The translations under genes and the position numbers were made by a program. From a virus (Duplodnaviria; Heunggongvirae; Uroviricota; Caudoviricetes): a stretch of 9,772 nt of DNA. Under the pieces are notes generated by a model. The model was given only the letters and a program-made list of their open reading frames with translations, had not been told where the DNA came from and did no database searches. This document shows, in pieces, positions 2,697-9,772 of this stretch (positions are counted from its first letter, which is position 1; every line of letters starts with the position of its first letter). The stretch lies in the IMG/VR virus record IMGVR_UViG_2606217100_000002; one strand, written 5' to 3'.

Positions 2697-2775
2697 GCCA
2701 CTGCTTTTCTTTGATGTCCCCATTTTGTGGAGCCCATCAACCCCGCCATTTCGGTTCAAGGTTGATGGGTTTTTT
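2697..2775 (+). ncRNA. rybB: RybB small regulatory RNA (Hfq-dependent, sigma-E regulon, represses outer-membrane protein mRNAs)
   Basis: 79-nt sequence starting GCCACTGCTTTTCTTTGATGTCCCC (the known RybB seed) and ending in a 10-bp stem (CCCATCAACC 2733-2742 / GGTTGATGGG 2760-2769) plus T6 (2770-2775); located downstream of ybjL as in E. coli. Confidence 0.85.
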
Positions 2776-2833
2776 GTTGCCTGAAATTTATGCTATTTAA
2801 AATCATGATGTTAGAAGCACTGTTTTTTAACGA

Positions 2834-4265: not shown

Positions 4266-4747
4266 GACAGCAGCCCTCCCACCGTTTTACTGATATCGCT
4301 TAATGCAGACGTTGCCGTATCCTGCAGATTATTCAGTTGCGTACTGAGATCACCGAACATATCGGACAGGGATTCATCCACCCGTTTGAGCGACAGGGTG
4401 AACTCAATCCGGCGCGGCATACCGTCGCGGAAAAACTCCGTTTTAGTCAGATTCAGTCCCTCAATCACATACATGCCGTAAATCGTGCCACTGCCTTCAA
4501 TCAGGGGCCATGCTTTTCCCTGTTCTGCCATCTGCTCCAGAGCCAGCAACGACAGCCTGCCGCCCGTTATCTCCGGCATAAGAACACCAGAAAGCGTCAG
4601 CATGTCGTTGTCCGGTCCCAGAAACTGCGTGGACGGACGACGGTTTACCCGGCTGTTTGCCGCATGTCGCCAGCTGCGTTGATACTGCAGTTCCTGATAC
4701 GGAACGGTGCGCAGCATAAACACGTACAATCCCAGCACCATCATCAT
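4262..4747 (-). CDS. gpU: P2 gpU-like tail protein
   Basis: 161-aa ORF between the T remnant and D, matching P2 order T-U-D; ATGA overlaps at both ends (4744-4747 and 4262-4265). Confidence 0.78.
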   Translation of the reverse strand: MMMVLGLYVFMLRTVPYQELQYQRSWRHAANSRVNRRPSTQFLGPDNDMLTLSGVLMPEITGGRLSLLALEQMAEQGKAWPLIEGSGTIYGMYVIEGLNLTKTEFFRDGMPRRIEFTLSLKRVDESLSDMFGDLSTQLNNLQDTATSALSDISKTVGGLLS

Positions 4748-5994
4748 GCGTCGTAACCCCCCTGATCGCTGTAGTTACTCCTGGCTTTTGCCTTCAGCCT
4801 GCGTTCACGTTCATCAAGCTGGCGGGCCACCTCCCGCGCAATATCCTGCGCACTTTGTCCAGGCTGCGTCTGGATGATGATCTGCATCGGTGCCTCAATC
4901 CTGTAAACGGGCGGCACAGTGGCTGCGCGACTCACCATCGCTTCTCCACCTTTCGCGGGAAGTGCCAAAGGGTGCAACGGTGGAAGCTCTGCTGGCGCGG
5001 CAGCAACGCCCATCATTCCGGCAACAACGGCAGCCAGTGCAGCTGTATTTCTCCGGCTGGTCACATTTGCCGGGCCATTAACAATTTCCGGCCCGTTTTC
5101 ACCGACGATGCCAAACTGCCCGCGCGGGATATAGCCGCCGCTGTCATACATCCCCGCAAAGCCATATCCCCATGACGGAAAACCACCCGATGGCATCATC
5201 ACTTTACCGTCTGCATTCACCGTCGCAGTTTGCTGACGCGTCACGCTTTCCGGCAGTTTTGCCTTTGCGGCCTCTTTACTGACAATGCCGAGCTTCTCCA
5301 GCAACCAGGAAACGCCGGATTTCAGGGAGTCCAGCGGATGCATGACCATATTCAGCCCTTCCGCCAGTGCCTCCCCGAATCGTCGCCCCATTGCCGCTGC
5401 GCTCTGCAGTTCGGCAGAGGTCGACTTAACGGGCGTCAGCAGATCAGTAAACCAGCCCCACAGCGCCTGTACTTTGTCGCCAATCCACTGAAACACAGGC
5501 TTAAGTGGTTCGAATGCAGCACTGATGGGACCTGCCGCCGCTTTGAATCCTTCCACCACGCCACCGATAAATGCGGTGATGGGTTGCCAGTATTTCCAGA
5601 CAACCAGCGCCACGCCCGCCAGTGCAGTAACCACAAGACCTATCGGACTGAGCAGAGCACCTACCGCACCTGCTGCAACACGCCCGATCTCTGCAGTTGC
5701 GCTCATGACGTAATGCGGCAGTTTCTCTTTTGCTACCTCATTAATCGGTACACATGGCAGACAATGAATCTGTGCCAGAAAACCATCTACCAACGTTGAA
5801 TCTTCAGTCAGATCGGTAAGCAGCCAGATTTCTGGTGCGGTTAATAAATGAGGTTGAGCTGGGTTCAGCTTGTTCCGCAGAATCTGCACATTCATGCCCG
5901 CACGTTCTGCCAGTTGCACCAGATTGTGGCGCAGTGCGAATGCACGACAGGCTTCATCAAAATGTGGATGTTTGGAAACTTGGTAATCAAACAT
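4744..5994 (-). CDS. chimeric ORF: N-terminal ~100 aa of a 186 CII-like regulator fused in frame to the C-terminal ~300 aa of a tail tape-measure protein (gpT remnant)
   Basis: From ATG at 5994 (GAGGTG RBS upstream) the first ~100 aa ([19 protein letters not shown] ... [25 protein letters not shown]) resemble phage 186 CII family regulators; the remainder is Gly/Ala-rich hydrophobic sequence typical of the C-terminal part of P2-type tape-measure proteins and is followed by U and D. The tracked ORF start at 6048 would overlap the upstream gene. Confidence 0.62.
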
Positions 5995-6026
5995 GGTCGA
6001 CACCTCTGATGTATCCCAAAATGGAA

Positions 6027-6248
6027 CTAGTTGAATACAACATTGCAATCAGTAAGTGCATCAACGGTAAGAGCAGCAAGGTTGATCATTACCTTTTCTC
6101 TTTTCTTGTCTTTACGAAGACGATGCCGAGGAATGCGACCATCCGCCAACATATCGTTGATTGTGTCGATTGAAAGACCAGTAAGTTCGCTATAACGCTC
6201 GATTGTGACGTGTGGCGTATTCAGAGTTATTGAAATGTTAGGGGTCAT
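6027..6248 (-). CDS. Apl/Cox-like small DNA-binding protein (excisionase / lytic-switch regulator)
   Basis: 73-aa ORF from ATG at 6248 (AGGAG 10 nt upstream); first gene of the leftward operon, divergent from cI and followed by the cII-like gene (the apl position in 186); helix-turn-helix-like segment [25 protein letters not shown]. The tracked start at 6365 would overlap cI. Confidence 0.55.
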
Positions 6249-6321: not shown

Positions 6322-6350
6322 ATACTAGGATCGCAAAAGAGATATGTCAA
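6322..6350 (-). promoter_or_regulatory. early (lytic, pR/Pe-like) sigma-70 promoter driving apl/cox and the cII fusion
   Basis: On the minus strand TTGACA (plus coordinates 6345-6350, overlapping the cI start codon), a 17-nt spacer, then TAGTAT (6322-6327); predicted start near 6314 at the edge of the palindrome. Confidence 0.5.
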
Positions 6351-6940
6351 CATCAAAGTACCCAAGTGAGATCAAAATAAATCCCAATAAAGGTGGTAAG
6401 GCTGCGATTGAGCGATTAGTCGAAGCCTATGGCTTTACGACACGACAGGCTTTAGCTGATCACTTGGAAGTATCAAAAAGCACACTAGCGAACAGGTATT
6501 TGCGGGATACATTTCCTGCTGACTGGATAATCCAATGTGCTCTTGAAACAGGAACCTCCCTCAAATGGTTAACTACCGGACAAGGCCTTAAGCAAAGCTC
6601 GCTGACAGCAGCTACAGAAGAGCTTGTTAAGTTTCGCCTTGCCGCAGGCAAAATGATTGAAGACGGTTCATATGTCTTCGATTCATCATTTCTTCCTGCA
6701 AACCTTTCATCACCAATTGTTGTTCAGGATGGACTCGTCACATACATTTGTGATCAAAAATTTTCTGAAGTACTTGATGGAAACTGGTTAATCAATATCG
6801 ACGGAACCTATTCCATTCGAAAAATCACAAGGCTTCCTAAAGGAATGATTAAAATTACAACAGCAGAGAATAGCTTTGAATGTGCATTTTCTGATATTGA
6901 AGTGGTTGCTTGTATAAGAAGTACAATAGTCTCGAATTAA
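6344..6940 (+). CDS. cI: phage CI-type immunity repressor (186 CI-like: N-terminal HTH plus C-terminal oligomerisation domain)
   Basis: 198-aa ORF; N-terminal helix-turn-helix region (GFTTRQALADHLEVSKSTLANRYL) typical of the phage CI repressor family; divergent from the apl/cox-like gene and upstream of int as in P2/186. Confidence 0.8.
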   Translation: MSTSKYPSEIKINPNKGGKAAIERLVEAYGFTTRQALADHLEVSKSTLANRYLRDTFPADWIIQCALETGTSLKWLTTGQGLKQSSLTAATEELVKFRLAAGKMIEDGSYVFDSSFLPANLSSPIVVQDGLVTYICDQKFSEVLDGNWLINIDGTYSIRKITRLPKGMIKITTAENSFECAFSDIEVVACIRSTIVSN

Positions 6941-6960
6941 TATAGTAAAAGGATTTTAAA

Positions 6961-8637
6961 ATGAATTCATTTGCCATCGTTATACTCTTATTAGCATTTC
7001 TCGCCCCTGTTCTAGCTGTAATATTATTTAAACAAAGTAAAAAACACAAAGCGGCTATAGATAACCTGACAGCTAACAACATAGCCCTTTCTAACCAACT
7101 GATTGAAAATCAAGAAAAACTAGCACAGACCGTACGAGAATTATCAGAGCTTGAAGGGCGAGCAGCACCATTGTGGCAATACGAAGAATTGCACAGCGCA
7201 GTAATGGATGCAGAGAATAAGATAAAAAATGCGGACTCAATAGCCAAGCAAAAAATAGATGAAGCCCAAATTAAGGCGGCTAAAACAGTAAACGAAGCAA
7301 ATTATCAAGCTCAGATGACAATAAGCAACGCTAATAGCGAAGCTATAGCAATCACCAAAGACGCTCGCGATGCACGCCTGAAAGCCAAAGAACGTCTTGA
7401 TAATGCTAATAATAAAGCAAATGAGCTAATCTCAAATGCTAATGACAATGCAGTAAAAATTATTTCTGATGCAGAAGAAAGAGCAAAGGAGATTGCTGGT
7501 TCAGCATATGAAGCTAAAGAGTTTGCAGAAAAATATGAAGCAGTTGCAAAATCAATGAAAAATAAAATTGAAGGTTATGGTGATGAATGGATCATCCCTA
7601 ACCGTAGTGTACTTGATGAGCTGGCAGAAAATTATGAATTTACAGATGCAGGCAAGGAATTACAAAAAGCCAGAGAGTTAACCAAATCATTAATAAAAAC
7701 TAATAAAGCTGCTTCGTGTGATTATGTTGAGCAAAACAGGCGTAATACTGCCATAAACTTTGTTTTGGATGCCTTCAATGGAAGAGTTGACAGTATTTTA
7801 TCAAAAGTCAAACACAACAATTTTGGAAAACTTTCCCAAGAAATAAAAGATGCATTTCAACTAGTAAATTACAATGGCTCTGCCTTTAGGTCCGCAAAAA
7901 TAAGTGACATCTATCTTCAGGCAAGACTCAACGAGCTAAAATGGGGTGTAGCAGTTAATGAAATTATGCTCGAAGAAAAAGAAGAGCAAAGAAGGATTAA
8001 AGAACAGCTTCGTGAAGAGGAAAGAGCTCGTAGAGAATATGAAAAAGCGATAAAAGAAGCTGAAAAAGAAGAAAAAGCTATTCAGCAAGCTATAAATAAA
8101 GCAACGAAAGAACTTATGCTTGCAAATGAAGAACAACGCTTAGCTTTAGAGCAAAAAATAGCTGAACTACAGTTAAAATATGAAGAAGCTGAAGCTAAAA
8201 ATCAACGAGCTATTTCTATGGCTCAACAAACCAGATCAGGCTACGTCTATATCATTAGTAATATTGGTTCATTTGGCGAAGATGTATATAAAATTGGAAT
8301 GACACGCCGCCTTGAACCACTTGATCGTGTTCGTGAACTCGGAGATGCTAGTGTTCCTTTTTCGTTCGATGTTCATGCGATGATTTATAGTGATGATGCA
8401 CCATCATTAGAAAACCATCTGCATAAAGTTTTCAACGAAAAGCAGGTCAATAAAATTAACTCACGAAAAGAGTTTTTTAACGTAAATTTAAAAGAAATCA
8501 AATCAGTTATTGAAGACATGAACATCAACGCCCACTGGACAATGTTTGCAGAGGCGAAAGAATATAGAGAGTCTCTAGCTATTGAGCAGGAGCGCAAAGC
8601 AGCCACTTCCGCCAACGATGAACTACATGTTGCTTAG
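6961..8637 (+). CDS. cargo (moron) protein: N-terminal transmembrane anchor, extended coiled coils, DUF4041-like middle region and C-terminal T5orf172/GIY-YIG-type nuclease domain; candidate anti-phage defence effector
   Basis: 558-aa ORF with AAAGGA RBS 8 nt upstream of ATG, 20 bp after the cI stop. Residues 5-23 hydrophobic (FAIVILLLAFLAPVLAVILF) followed by KQSKKHK. Two long K/E/A-rich coiled-coil stretches. C-terminus GYVYIISN...YKIGMTRR...RVRELGDASVPFSFDVHAMIYSDDAPSLENHLHKVF...RKEFFNV fits the GIY-(10-11)-YIG, Arg, Glu pattern of T5orf172/GIY-YIG nucleases. Markedly AT-rich relative to the flanking prophage genes. Confidence 0.6.
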   Translation: MNSFAIVILLLAFLAPVLAVILFKQSKKHKAAIDNLTANNIALSNQLIENQEKLAQTVRELSELEGRAAPLWQYEELHSAVMDAENKIKNADSIAKQKIDEAQIKAAKTVNEANYQAQMTISNANSEAIAITKDARDARLKAKERLDNANNKANELISNANDNAVKIISDAEERAKEIAGSAYEAKEFAEKYEAVAKSMKNKIEGYGDEWIIPNRSVLDELAENYEFTDAGKELQKARELTKSLIKTNKAASCDYVEQNRRNTAINFVLDAFNGRVDSILSKVKHNNFGKLSQEIKDAFQLVNYNGSAFRSAKISDIYLQARLNELKWGVAVNEIMLEEKEEQRRIKEQLREEERARREYEKAIKEAEKEEKAIQQAINKATKELMLANEEQRLALEQKIAELQLKYEEAEAKNQRAISMAQQTRSGYVYIISNIGSFGEDVYKIGMTRRLEPLDRVRELGDASVPFSFDVHAMIYSDDAPSLENHLHKVFNEKQVNKINSRKEFFNVNLKEIKSVIEDMNINAHWTMFAEAKEYRESLAIEQERKAATSANDELHVA

Positions 8638-8694
8638 CAATGTATGTTTCATAGTAATCACACATTGATTACTGGTTACATATACAGTTAAATT

Positions 8695-8719
8695 TAGCCC
8701 TCTGATATGAGGGCTTTTT
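8695..8719 (+). terminator. intrinsic terminator after the cargo gene, abutting the int start codon
   Basis: Stem AGCCCTC (8696-8702) / GAGGGCT (8709-8715), 6-nt loop, then a T-run to 8719; int ATG at 8720. The GAGGG of the 3' stem half doubles as the only candidate Shine-Dalgarno for int. Confidence 0.55.
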
Positions 8720-9772
8720 ATGGCAGTACGAAAACTAACCACAGGGAAATGGCTTTGCGAATGTTACCCCGCCGGACGAAGTGGGCGTCGTGTGCGTAAA
8801 CAATTCGCTACCAAAGGCGAAGCACTGGCTTTTGAGCGCCACACGATGGAAGAAACCGAAGCAAAGCCCTGGCTGGGTGAATCAGTGGATCGTCGAACAC
8901 TGAAAGACGTGGTTGAGCTATGGTTCAAACTACATGGTAAATCTCTGACAGCTGGGCAGCATGTCTATGACAAATTGCTGTTGATGGTTGACGCTCTGGG
9001 CAATCCTCTTGCAACCGATCTCACCTCTAAAATGTTTGCCCACTATCGAGATAAACGCCTGACAGGCGAGATCTACTTCAGCGAGAAATGGAAGAAAGGA
9101 GCAAGCCCGGTCACCATTAACCTGGAGCAAAGCTATCTAAGTAGTGTTTTTAGCGAACTATCCCGTCTGGGCGAATGGTCGTATCCGAACCCACTGGAGA
9201 ACATGCGAAAATTCACCATCGCAGAAAAAGAGATGGCATGGCTTACCCATGAGCAGATTGTTGAATTGCTGGCTGATTGCAAACGTCAGGACCCAATTCT
9301 GGCACTGGTAGTTAAGATATGCTTAAGCACAGGCGCACGCTGGCGTGAAGCCGTAAATCTTACCCGCTCACAGGTGACCAAATACCGAATTACCTTTGTC
9401 AGAACGAAGGGGAAGAAAAACAGAAGCATCCCTATCAGTAAAGAGCTTTACGAAGAGATCATGGCGCTTGATGGGTTCAATTTCTTCACAGACTGCTATT
9501 TTCAATTTTTATCCGTGATGGAAAAAACGTCTATCGTGCTCCCTCGCGGTCAACTCACACACGTTCTGCGCCATACGTTTGCGGCGCACTTCATGATGTC
9601 GGGTGGAAACATTCTGGCCTTACAAAAAATTCTCGGACACCACGATATAAAAATGACTATGCGTTACGCACATCTGGCACCGGATCATCTAGAAACGGCG
9701 CTCCGTTTCAATCCTCTGGCAACGCTACCAAGTGGCGACAAAGTGGCGGCAGCGGTTGGCATTACCCCGTAA
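8720..9772 (+). CDS. int: P2-type tyrosine integrase (site-specific recombinase)
   Basis: 350-aa ORF; N-terminus MAVRKL.. and overall sequence resemble P2 Int; catalytic-region motifs LSTGARWREA (Arg), HVLRHTFAAHF (His-x-x-Arg) and MTMRYAHLAP (Tyr nucleophile); last gene before the presumed attachment site. Confidence 0.93.
   Translation: MAVRKLTTGKWLCECYPAGRSGRRVRKQFATKGEALAFERHTMEETEAKPWLGESVDRRTLKDVVELWFKLHGKSLTAGQHVYDKLLLMVDALGNPLATDLTSKMFAHYRDKRLTGEIYFSEKWKKGASPVTINLEQSYLSSVFSELSRLGEWSYPNPLENMRKFTIAEKEMAWLTHEQIVELLADCKRQDPILALVVKICLSTGARWREAVNLTRSQVTKYRITFVRTKGKKNRSIPISKELYEEIMALDGFNFFTDCYFQFLSVMEKTSIVLPRGQLTHVLRHTFAAHFMMSGGNILALQKILGHHDIKMTMRYAHLAPDHLETALRFNPLATLPSGDKVAAAVGITP
9733..9754 (+). 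repeat. 22-bp direct repeat, right copy (TGGCGACAAAGTGGCGGCAGCG), inside the 3' end of int
   Basis: 21 of 22 identity with 2834-2855 in the same orientation; encodes int residues ..GDKVAAA..; 18 nt before the int stop. Confidence 0.5.

Follow-up and report, generated by a model that had tools for sequence, protein, structure and literature searches.

A predicted, diverged SNIPE-family nuclease gene at the cI-int junction of a 186-like prophage

The question raised by this locus is why a gene for a 558-amino-acid (aa) protein separates the repressor gene of a prophage from its integrase gene, and what that protein might do there. In phage 186 the start of int overlaps the stop of cI, and in P2 the 115 nt that separate C from int carry no annotation. 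The initial annotation, made from the letters alone, had rested on the premise that repressor and integrase genes adjoin, which both phages bear out, and had regarded the additional gene as cargo and as a candidate single-gene defence system. It had also taken P2 proper as the prophage type; this had to be corrected, as the prophage is 186-like (CI, Apl, CII). Here, we examined the whole stretch of DNA, 9,772 nt long (the window), with emphasis on this gene, which we call the SNIPE gene after the family assigned below.

Gene context at the cI-int junction

The features that frame the gene are as follows.

6322..6350, - strand: promoter-like TTGACA-17-TAGTAT facing apl, the positional counterpart of 186 pR (scan and 186 comparison)
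6344..6940, + strand: cI repressor gene, 198 aa, 186 type, upstream gene (Pfam Phage_CI_repr, Phage_CI_C)
6949..6953, + strand: Shine-Dalgarno AAGGA, 7 nt 5' of the ATG (read from the sequence)
6961..8637, + strand: coding sequence of the 558-aa SNIPE/PD-lambda-1 family protein (ATG start; stop codon 8635-8637)
8696..8715, + strand: GC-rich hairpin and T-run abutting the int ATG, right edge of the cargo slot (terminator-like match)
8720..9772, + strand: tyrosine integrase gene, 350 aa, downstream gene (Pfam Int_N, Phage_integrase)

The 558-aa open reading frame claimed initially is present exactly at 6961-8637 on the + strand, and both gene context and the comparison with 186 confirm its placement as cargo between cI (RefSeq product name "phage repressor protein CI") and int. 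It starts 20 nt past the cI stop codon and has its own Shine-Dalgarno sequence. With 36.9% GC (GC3 27%), the gene is indeed AT-rich against the GC-richer tail genes D, U, and T' (54-58%); the values for int and cI are 48.7% and 40.2%. The right edge of the slot is defined by comparison with prophages that carry other cargo there: homology to these restarts at 8640-8662, and the hairpin at 8696-8715 is kept in them. Among the alternative occupants of the same slot are KAP NTPases matching the PADLOC candidate system PDC-S20. The slot fits a minor "integrase to primase" hotspot of P2-like phages that was reported earlier (PMC13586616).

The order cI-SNIPE-int was found in 163 complete E. coli genomes, and the cI-SNIPE pair is also unchanged in prophages of Klebsiella, Salmonella, and Enterobacter. 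The neighborhood analysis proposed initially thus finds homologues keeping their cI-adjacent prophage position across four genera in all; cI always accompanies the SNIPE gene, and int varies (339, 344, or 350 aa). In 186, the cI-int transcription unit is the pL/pE lysogenic operon of the annotated switch region, and from the spacing and this paradigm we infer that the SNIPE gene would be cotranscribed with cI. A promoter scan detected no sigma-70-like promoter between cI and the SNIPE gene, and shuffled sequences gave more sites than the region did; an independent promoter is therefore not claimed. The prophage itself is a defective deletion remnant that has lost the whole interval separating cII from the tape measure gene, so the expression control of the SNIPE gene may differ. 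The cI-int junction of 186-like prophages comes into view here as a cargo slot, with its contents predicted to be expressed with the repressor.

Purifying selection on the gene is strong: gene-wide dN/dS between the Klebsiella and Enterobacter copies is 0.05, which marks it as a coding sequence under selection. Between the E. coli allele and those of the other genera, synonymous sites are saturated across most regions. Rfam and tRNA scans gave no match within the gene.

Family assignment and domain architecture

By profile and sequence comparison, the 558-aa protein is a diverged member of the already characterized SNIPE (PD-lambda-1) family. The PADLOC PD-Lambda-1 model PDLC03976 aligned residues 106-550 with profile positions 36-481 of 491 (E = 3.4e-120, 400 bits), leaving residues 1-105 outside the match; PDLC03977 matched at E = 1.7e-116 and PHROG 1847 at E = 7.5e-133. 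As reference we used the 500-aa SNIPE of E. coli ECOR26 (RCP76574.1), compared via a proxy, a 500-aa E. coli MP1 protein in which all nine residues of the SNIPE paper and the published PD-lambda-1 Pfam coordinates match; this proxy scored 659 bits on the PD-Lambda-1 model (positions 1-485). PD-lambda-1 was validated by experiment as a single-gene defense (Vassallo et al. 2022; PMC9519451), and it was renamed SNIPE in Nature 2026, where its mechanism was dissected (Saxton et al. [quoted passage not shown] As in SNIPE, the gene forms a single-gene system without a conserved partner, its neighbors being the phage's own cI and int.

The initial idea of a candidate single-gene defense system was therefore right at the family level (PD-Lambda-1 E = 3e-120), and the profile searches that it proposed all matched (Pfam DUF4041 and T5orf172 as well as PADLOC PD-Lambda-1). 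Novelty had been left open: the defense idea stands, but the family was already known and the protein is labeled in RefSeq ("DUF4041 / SNIPE associated domain-containing protein"). No experiments on the 558-aa clade were found in the literature that could be searched.

Within the coding sequence, the following parts were distinguished.

6970..7029, + strand: single transmembrane helix FAIVILLLAFLAPVLAVILF, codons 4-23, followed by KQSKKHK (hydropathy)
7030..7572, + strand: long helical N-terminal region, codons 24-204, the family's variable "adapter" (AF2, composition)
7573..7935, + strand: DUF4041 region, codons 205-325; Pfam core 267-322 at nt 7759-7926 (Pfam PF13250)
7936..8235, + strand: highly charged helical linker from DUF4041 to the nuclease, codons 326-425 (AF2, composition)
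8236..8544, + strand: GIY-YIG (T5orf172) nuclease domain, codons 426-528 (Pfam)
8242..8244, + strand: codon 428, TAC, Tyr; allele-specific, in place of the G-H-V-Y motif His that is invariant otherwise
8410..8412, + strand: codon 484, Glu, counterpart of SNIPE catalytic E414 (pairwise alignment)

Each element of the architecture foreseen in the initial annotation was recovered: a hydrophobic N-terminal helix with a cytoplasmic C terminus (residues 4-23 and KQSKKHK), a region of about 170 residues rich in Ala, Asn, Lys, and Glu (about 180 helical residues), a DUF4041-like region, a second highly charged helical region (placed at about 330-410, seen at 331-422), and a C-terminal T5orf172/GIY-YIG module. 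Membrane targeting in an N-out/C-in orientation, as in the SNIPE family, is predicted from hydropathy and the positive-inside rule only. The helix at 4-23 is the protein's sole hydrophobic stretch (Kyte-Doolittle 19-residue mean 3.16); it is preceded by an N-tail of 3 residues, and four K/R occur among the 15 residues starting at F23, its last residue. A comparable N-terminal helix is present in 51/52 aligned homologues. For the reference SNIPE, N-out/C-in topology was established by PhoA-LacZalpha fusions, and a single membrane helix lies among the N-terminal 70 residues in 59% of SNIPE homologues (PMC13190303).

The stalk that follows was modeled by AF2 as two long N-terminal helices (3-131 and 136-204), and the composition of residues 24-200 is 19% A, 12% K, 11% E, and 10% N. 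Residues 24-131 are the most variable within the protein's own clade (median identity 70% versus 88-94% elsewhere) and have the highest dN, 3-4 times that of other parts. The DUF4041 region is a helix/strand domain in the AF2 model; PF13250 (DUF4041, now named SNIPE in Pfam) matched residues 267-322 over the full profile length (46.6 bits; gathering cutoff 27), and identical proteins carry the precomputed label "PF13250:SNIPE". Five of its residues (A271, F272, N273, N287, and N303) are unchanged across 52 homologues. The linker comprises AF2 helices 316-387 and 390-425, and charged residues make up 46% of the stretch 331-422.

The C terminus has the GIY-YIG (T5orf172) nuclease with catalytic Glu that characterizes SNIPE. 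Pfam T5orf172 (427-520, 65 bits) and MUG113 (443-520, 72.7 bits) both scored above their curated cutoffs, and the model of the domain matches the GIY-YIG enzyme SLX1. The nuclease motif residues are unchanged in 52 homologues, with Glu484 kept in 52/52 sequences; in the reference SNIPE, the E414A mutation abolished both defense and toxicity (PMC13190303).

Other identities were considered and set aside. An SMC-like "chromosome segregation ATPase" lacks support, given that Walker A is absent and TIGR02169 reached 15.8 bits against a cutoff of 729 within the coiled-coil stretch only; weak matches to DivIVA, PspB, SMC, and ATP synthase b/E, far under their cutoffs, likewise reflect compositional coiled coil. 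Foldseek, run on the PDB with the full-length AF2 model as query, returned coiled-coil look-alikes only, none at E <= 0.001, and a profile search of PDB sequences yielded no solved relative, the best match (ATP synthase b', E = 0.015) being a coiled-coil artifact. No sequence-specific DNA-binding module was among the profile-search matches, and the membrane helix, DUF4041, long helices, and fixed cI-int position do not fit a GIY-YIG homing endonuclease.

Proposed mechanism, position 428, and competing explanations

We consider it very probable that the gene encodes a diverged SNIPE, a single-gene, direct (nonabortive) defense that a 186-like prophage of the Peduoviridae bears as cargo within its lysogenic operon. 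In a lysogen, the protein would be made together with CI from pL and would reside in the inner membrane with its nuclease cytoplasmic and autoinhibited. DUF4041 might then engage the tape measure protein complex and incoming DNA at the injection site, upon which the nuclease would cut the entering phage genome and the cell would survive. Which phages are targeted is proposed to depend on the N-terminal stalk together with the surface of DUF4041.

Position 428, two residues ahead of the motif Tyr, raises the chief alternative. Among 122 fetched 558-aa proteins, 121 have His there, as do 40 of 40 distant aligned homologues and one DUF4041-less relative, so that the Tyr of this copy, a single-nucleotide difference from the AR_0085 copy, is unique among them; it was also found in 0 of 164 complete RefSeq E. 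coli copies. Tyr428 could weaken or abolish nuclease activity, and the copy would then be a decaying or attenuated SNIPE hitch-hiking in a defective remnant. The loss of everything from cII to the tape measure gene would suit such a history, as would the observation that tiny changes inactivate PD-Lambda-1 homologues of Streptococcus thermophilus, which at 98.5% identity range from fully active to inactive (bioRxiv 10.1101/2024.10.22.618286). However, the open reading frame is intact, apart from position 428 every invariant residue is retained, among them the experimentally validated catalytic Glu, and His-to-Tyr keeps an aromatic/polar side chain. Moreover, the exact Tyr428 protein occurs in 91 blocks of a large collection, both on remnants and on intact 186-like prophages with varied hotspot cargo, and its host flanks are of two kinds or more; this spread makes a dead allele unlikely, and we regard attenuation as improbable, though to be taken seriously.

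Membrane-tethered effectors freed on infection are a common abortive design, and an abortive-infection toxin of that type, with infection freeing or activating the nuclease against the host chromosome and killing the infected cell, would also account for an anchored nuclease. The sensor parts of the 558-aa clade differ from those of the reference, and deletion of the membrane helix from reference SNIPE yields a highly toxic form that binds to the nucleoid and cleaves host DNA (PMC13190303). Yet the reference gives survival at high multiplicity of infection, with infected cells unlysed (PMC13190303), and both the architecture and the parts that hold the nuclease at the membrane are conserved in the 558-aa protein, which leaves killing of the host a decidedly small chance. 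Smaller still, to the point of being hardly credible, is that of a role outside defense, as a selfish GIY-YIG homing endonuclease or a nuclease or structural protein of the phage cycle. Phage homing endonucleases do include proteins with T5orf172 and GIY-YIG domains, the gene is annotated as "chromosome segregation ATPase" in phage records ON470620 and OM835953, and there are the weak coiled-coil matches to SMC, DivIVA, and ATP synthase b; but a membrane anchor and DUF4041 are foreign to homing endonucleases, and the gene is fixed beside cI rather than within a target gene and lies in the lysogenic, not the lytic, operon.

Direct defense by a diverged SNIPE remains our preferred reading. Taken alone, the gene matters little: family, defense role, and mechanism are published, and annotation pipelines recognize it. 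Its value is as a natural variant for probing the published model, with the nuclease kept and the adapter and DUF4041 surface swapped, and with His and Tyr as naturally occurring alternatives at a nuclease site that is otherwise invariant. A bolder proposal, which we advance tentatively and think rather less likely than its converse, is that the 558-aa clade forms a SNIPE lineage with a function of its own, in which stalk and DUF4041 redirect targeting, the gene forms a cI-coupled cassette, and Tyr428 tunes activity. If so, the longer stalk and the strongly diverged DUF4041 surface would steer the nuclease to an entry route or a phage set other than those of the reference, with its lambda/ManYZ and siphovirus tape measure targets. 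With the gene firmly coupled to one particular cI allele in the lysogenic operon, repressor immunity and DNA cutting at entry would be inherited together as one "immunity plus defense" cassette, and the recurrent Tyr428 allele would represent activity tuning rather than damage.

Comparison with reference SNIPE and other known systems

The 558-aa protein shares with the reference SNIPE a common order of parts (membrane helix with positive flank, stalk, DUF4041, charged linker, and GIY-YIG/T5orf172 nuclease), and its AF2 model has the same elongated helix-domain-helix-nuclease plan. Identity is unevenly distributed along this plan. BLAST against the proxy aligned the C-terminal 293 aa at 49% identity: the nuclease domains are 73% identical (E414 aligning with E484), the linker equivalent 261-352 is 48% identical (44/92 aligned positions), and the DUF4041 core only 28%, whereas the N-terminal 264 aa gave no BLAST alignment. 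In total length the protein exceeds the reference by 58 aa, and in its N-terminal stalk alone by about 70 residues. Reference positions at which mutation altered tape measure binding also differ (E223 to S292, W257 to K327, K305 to Q375, and T319 to N389), and Tyr428 replaces the invariant His of the family. Because the stalk and DUF4041 surface diverge so strongly, neither the partner proteins nor the target range of the reference can be transferred to the clade, and its target range is probably other than the lambda/ManYZ-linked one of the reference. Both genes are prophage-borne, the one between cI and int of a 186-like myovirus and the other in a lambdoid ren/nin region.

More distant systems extend the comparison. 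PD-Lambda-1 of S. thermophilus, from a Gram-positive host, belongs to the same PADLOC/DefenseFinder family as the 558-aa protein, and these distant members also defend, against siphoviruses (bioRxiv 10.1101/2024.10.22.618286). The PADLOC candidate PDC-S57 is matched by the nuclease part of the protein only. The 414-aa "GIY-YIG nuclease family protein" of E. coli 042 (WP_000897032.1) is 49% identical over 217 aa of linker and T5orf172 and is likewise anchored at its N terminus, but by two hydrophobic helices and without DUF4041; its gene is chromosomal, alongside a type VI secretion cluster, and has a 3'-5' exonuclease gene as neighbor. Zorya and Kiwa act, as SNIPE does, at the inner membrane upon genome injection (PMC13190303). 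The PADLOC model search showed no similarity to either in the 558-aa protein: both are multigene systems of unrelated proteins, unlike the single-gene SNIPE.

A SNIPE-family gene between cI and int

The protein of 558 amino acids encoded between the repressor and integrase genes falls within an established family of single-gene antiphage defense proteins. It matched both PADLOC models of PD-Lambda-1, with E values of 3.4e-120 and 1.7e-116, bearing out at the family level the initial annotation's view of a single-gene defense candidate, and matched PHROG 1847 at 7.5e-133. PD-lambda-1 was recovered from E. coli DNA by functional selection against lambda-vir (PMC9519451) and was renamed SNIPE in 2026 (PMC13190303). 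The family is already known, mechanistically characterized, and recognized by PADLOC, Pfam, and RefSeq; its RefSeq product name is "DUF4041 domain-containing protein," and recent annotations read "SNIPE associated domain-containing protein." SNIPE spans the inner membrane once, with its N terminus in the periplasm, and its DUF4041 binds DNA and probably also siphovirus tape measure proteins; defense requires GIY-YIG residue E414, loss of the membrane helix leads to cutting of the host chromosome, ManYZ is an associate, and within the BASEL set siphoviruses were blocked while myoviruses and podoviruses were not (PMC13190303).

Features in the window (strand in parentheses)
2700-2778 (+): sRNA gene rybB (Rfam RF00110, 105 bits), where the prophage ends on the ogr side
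4744-6048 (-): in-frame cII-tape measure fusion, junction at 5661/5662; first ~111 cII codons joined to the tape measure gene's 3' portion
6344-6940 (+): 186-type CI repressor gene, upstream neighbor of the SNIPE-family gene
7 nt before the ATG of the SNIPE-family gene (+): AAGGA ribosome-binding site, read from the sequence
6961-8637 (+): SNIPE-family coding sequence, 558 aa, ATG start (ORF call)
8242-8244 (+): codon 428 (Tyr), a position held by His in every other examined protein of the SNIPE family
8720-9772 (+): tyrosine integrase gene, downstream neighbor

The architecture previously described, a membrane-anchored, coiled-coil GIY-YIG nuclease, was accurate in each element by ORF calling, hydrophobicity, composition, AlphaFold2, and Pfam. 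Residues 4-23 form the sole strongly hydrophobic stretch and are followed by KQSKKHK, a positive-inside flank; Ala, Lys, Glu, and Asn are abundant in residues 24-200, and charged residues make up 46% of residues 331-422. An AlphaFold2 model (52 homologues, mean pLDDT of 74.7, pTM of 0.34) comprised helices at 3-131, 136-204, 316-387, and 390-425, a small helix/strand domain (217-314), and an alpha/beta domain (427-528). DUF4041 (267-322), T5orf172 (427-520), and MUG113 (443-520) each scored above the curated Pfam cutoff. Two other identities were rejected: a homing endonuclease, given the membrane anchor and the gene's place in the lysogenic operon, and a "chromosome segregation ATPase" (the label in two phage records), as the protein lacks a Walker A motif and such matches were to coiled coil only, far under cutoffs.

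The prophage and its variable slots

The strand opposite to the gene carries an apl/cox-like gene and the cII-tape measure fusion, then U, D, and ogr. The underlying deletion removes replication, head, lysis, and most tail genes, and the in-frame fusion marks what is left as the remnant of a 186-like (Peduoviridae) prophage. This layout was also found in GCA_000704925.1 (locus L023) and, as a variant, in locus L026; the junction had no one-piece match in complete RefSeq E. coli genomes. The prophage adjoins rybB, between ybjL and rcdA, and similarity to prophage-free E. coli genomes stops at about position 2795; together, these place its apparent integration site at the rybB 3' end. Intact versions, with gene copies differing by 1 or 2 nt, occur in E. 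coli AR_0085 and GenBank ON470620. The GpA-GpQ hotspot of this lineage holds cargo that differs by strain (L001:1-1154 and L010:12886-14037 in two comparison loci); AR_0085, for example, has an ABC-three-component system there, and ON470620 has a Hypoth_Ymh-domain protein.

The cI stop and the int start overlap in phage 186, whose lysogenic operon, with transcription from pL and pE, includes both genes; the corresponding gap in P2, from C to int, is 115 nt. The earlier view that the gene had been inserted between the repressor and integrase genes was therefore right, and 186 is the better comparator. The inserted gene lies in the lysogenic transcription unit, starting 20 nt after the cI stop codon, and its GC content is 36.9% (27% at third codon positions), against 40.2% for cI, 48.7% for int, and 54 to 58% for the prophage tail genes.

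Integrases of this type were found in 1,135 genomes. Similarity to prophages without the gene restarts at positions 8640-8662, just past its stop codon, and the alternative contents of the slot were an ORF of 63 to 71 aa (its N terminus signal-peptide-like), a KAP-family NTPase, or a second CI-like gene with a KAP NTPase. These NTPases correspond to PADLOC candidate PDC-S20 (E = 1e-78 to 1e-82), with weaker similarity to PifA and QatA. A cargo slot between cI and int is not new as an idea; it fits the minor "integrase to primase" hotspot described in P2-like phages (PMC13586616). A second variable slot, from int to the attachment site, corresponds to the minor hotspot that PMC13586616 calls "integrase to att." Its contents were a DUF2971 protein (PADLOC PDC-S31, E = 4e-23), in Klebsiella a pentapeptide-repeat protein, or hypothetical proteins (89 to 240 aa); phage 186 carries Orf69 here.

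Slot contents in comparison loci
L004:2007-4473, L005:3050-4501, L003:4199-4390: alternative cargo at the same chromosomal site, counterpart of window 6941-8660
L006:5799-6551 (-), L008:4603-5325, L011:7910-8770, L007:4651-4920, L009:4686-5018: second slot, int to attachment site

The ~60 nt before int (8660-8719) are conserved irrespective of cargo and carry, in order, a promoter-like TTGATT-18-TAAATT, a GC-rich hairpin of 7 bp, and a T-run reaching the int ATG; no Shine-Dalgarno sequence was found there. In two prophages, the stem differed in sequence with pairing kept. A possible role for this element is to uncouple int from the cI transcript as a terminator or attenuator.

Distribution, selection, and the Tyr428 allele

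Copies with at least 90% nucleotide identity were present in 164 of 5,426 complete E. coli genomes, each chromosomal and single-copy, and all but one (163/164) within a cI-gene-int block. Klebsiella, Salmonella, and Enterobacter have 186-like prophages in which proteins 82 to 86% identical are encoded at exactly this place; the distance to cI (198 aa) is unchanged, and the integrases differ. At megablast sensitivity, no genome had this cI allele without the gene. Selection on the family copies is purifying (dN/dS = 0.05, Klebsiella versus Enterobacter). Nonsynonymous change was 3 to 4 times higher in residues 24-131 than elsewhere, in agreement with the published view of the SNIPE N-terminal region as a fast-evolving adapter (PMC13190303).

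The sole rival reading with real support is that this copy is an attenuated or decaying allele, which we consider improbable. A single nucleotide (position 8242) separates it from the AR_0085 copy and places Tyr428 in the G-H-V-Y motif. Of 122 proteins of 558 aa that were retrieved, 121 have His there, as do 40/40 aligned distant homologues and an E. coli 042 relative lacking DUF4041. AR_0085, among the best-matching complete E. coli genomes, has His428; among complete-genome copies, no 100% nucleotide match was reported, the best listed being 99.9%. In Streptococcus thermophilus, PD-Lambda-1 homologues sharing 98.5% identity span the range from strong protection to no activity (bioRxiv 10.1101/2024.10.22.618286). 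Yet the exact Tyr428 protein occurred in 91 blocks of a large collection. Its carriers, from more than one host background, include both intact prophages that differ in hotspot cargo and remnants of identical layout; HTH/peptidase M78 and GmrSD-like genes appeared in the GpA-GpQ hotspot of these loci. Tyr428 may weaken the nuclease. An abortive mode of defense would be contrary to the reference SNIPE and is unlikely.

Comparison with the tested SNIPE

As a proxy for the tested protein (RCP76574.1, ECOR26, 500 aa), we used a 500-aa protein from a lambdoid prophage of E. coli MP1, because 9/9 residues named in the paper were in place and its Pfam coordinates matched the 2022 supplement. Its gene lies between ren and nin genes (L002:6984-10393), with a 515-aa HD-domain protein encoded 3' on the same strand. 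BLAST identity to the proxy was 49% across 293 C-terminal residues; in a global alignment divided into segments, identity was 73% in the nuclease, 48% in the linker, and 28% in the DUF4041 core. E484 aligned with the reference E414 and belongs to a conserved catalytic set, with G427, V429, Y430, K444, G446, T448, R449, R450, E484, N500, and E504 invariant across 52 members. In contrast, the N-terminal 264 residues had no BLAST alignment to the proxy, this part being ~70 residues longer, and the reference positions at which mutations alter tape measure binding are S292, K327, Q375, and N389 in this clade.

By analogy with the reference, lysogens would make the protein together with CI, DUF4041 (perhaps with the stalk) would bring it to the injection apparatus, and it would cut the phage genome on entry. 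Partner proteins and phage range are not transferable, because the specificity-bearing parts differ.

The N-terminal 264 residues retrieved 204 cluster representatives at E ≤ 1e-10, and the 10 full-length homologues scanned encoded DUF4041 (10/10) and T5orf172 (8/10), so the protein belongs to a sizeable second SNIPE sub-lineage and is not a new fusion. T5orf172/MUG113 was not detectable in P0303 (565 aa) and P0309 (617 aa), two DUF4041-bearing homologues of this region that may represent fragmentary gene calls or SNIPE-like proteins whose effector is a different one.

DUF4041-less relative
L029:3160-4404: WP_000897032.1 of E. coli 042, 414 aa; two N-terminal hydrophobic helices, coiled coil, charged linker, and T5orf172

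At 49% identity over 217 aa, this relative has the linker and T5orf172 nuclease in common with the prophage protein, but it lacks DUF4041. Its gene lies by a type VI secretion cluster, with a 3'-5' exonuclease gene as neighbor, and its relatives occur in about 270 E. coli genomes. Judged by sequence, the prophage protein is a new SNIPE-family member, set apart by its adapter region, by its prophage location, and by the odd replacement of an otherwise invariant nuclease residue.
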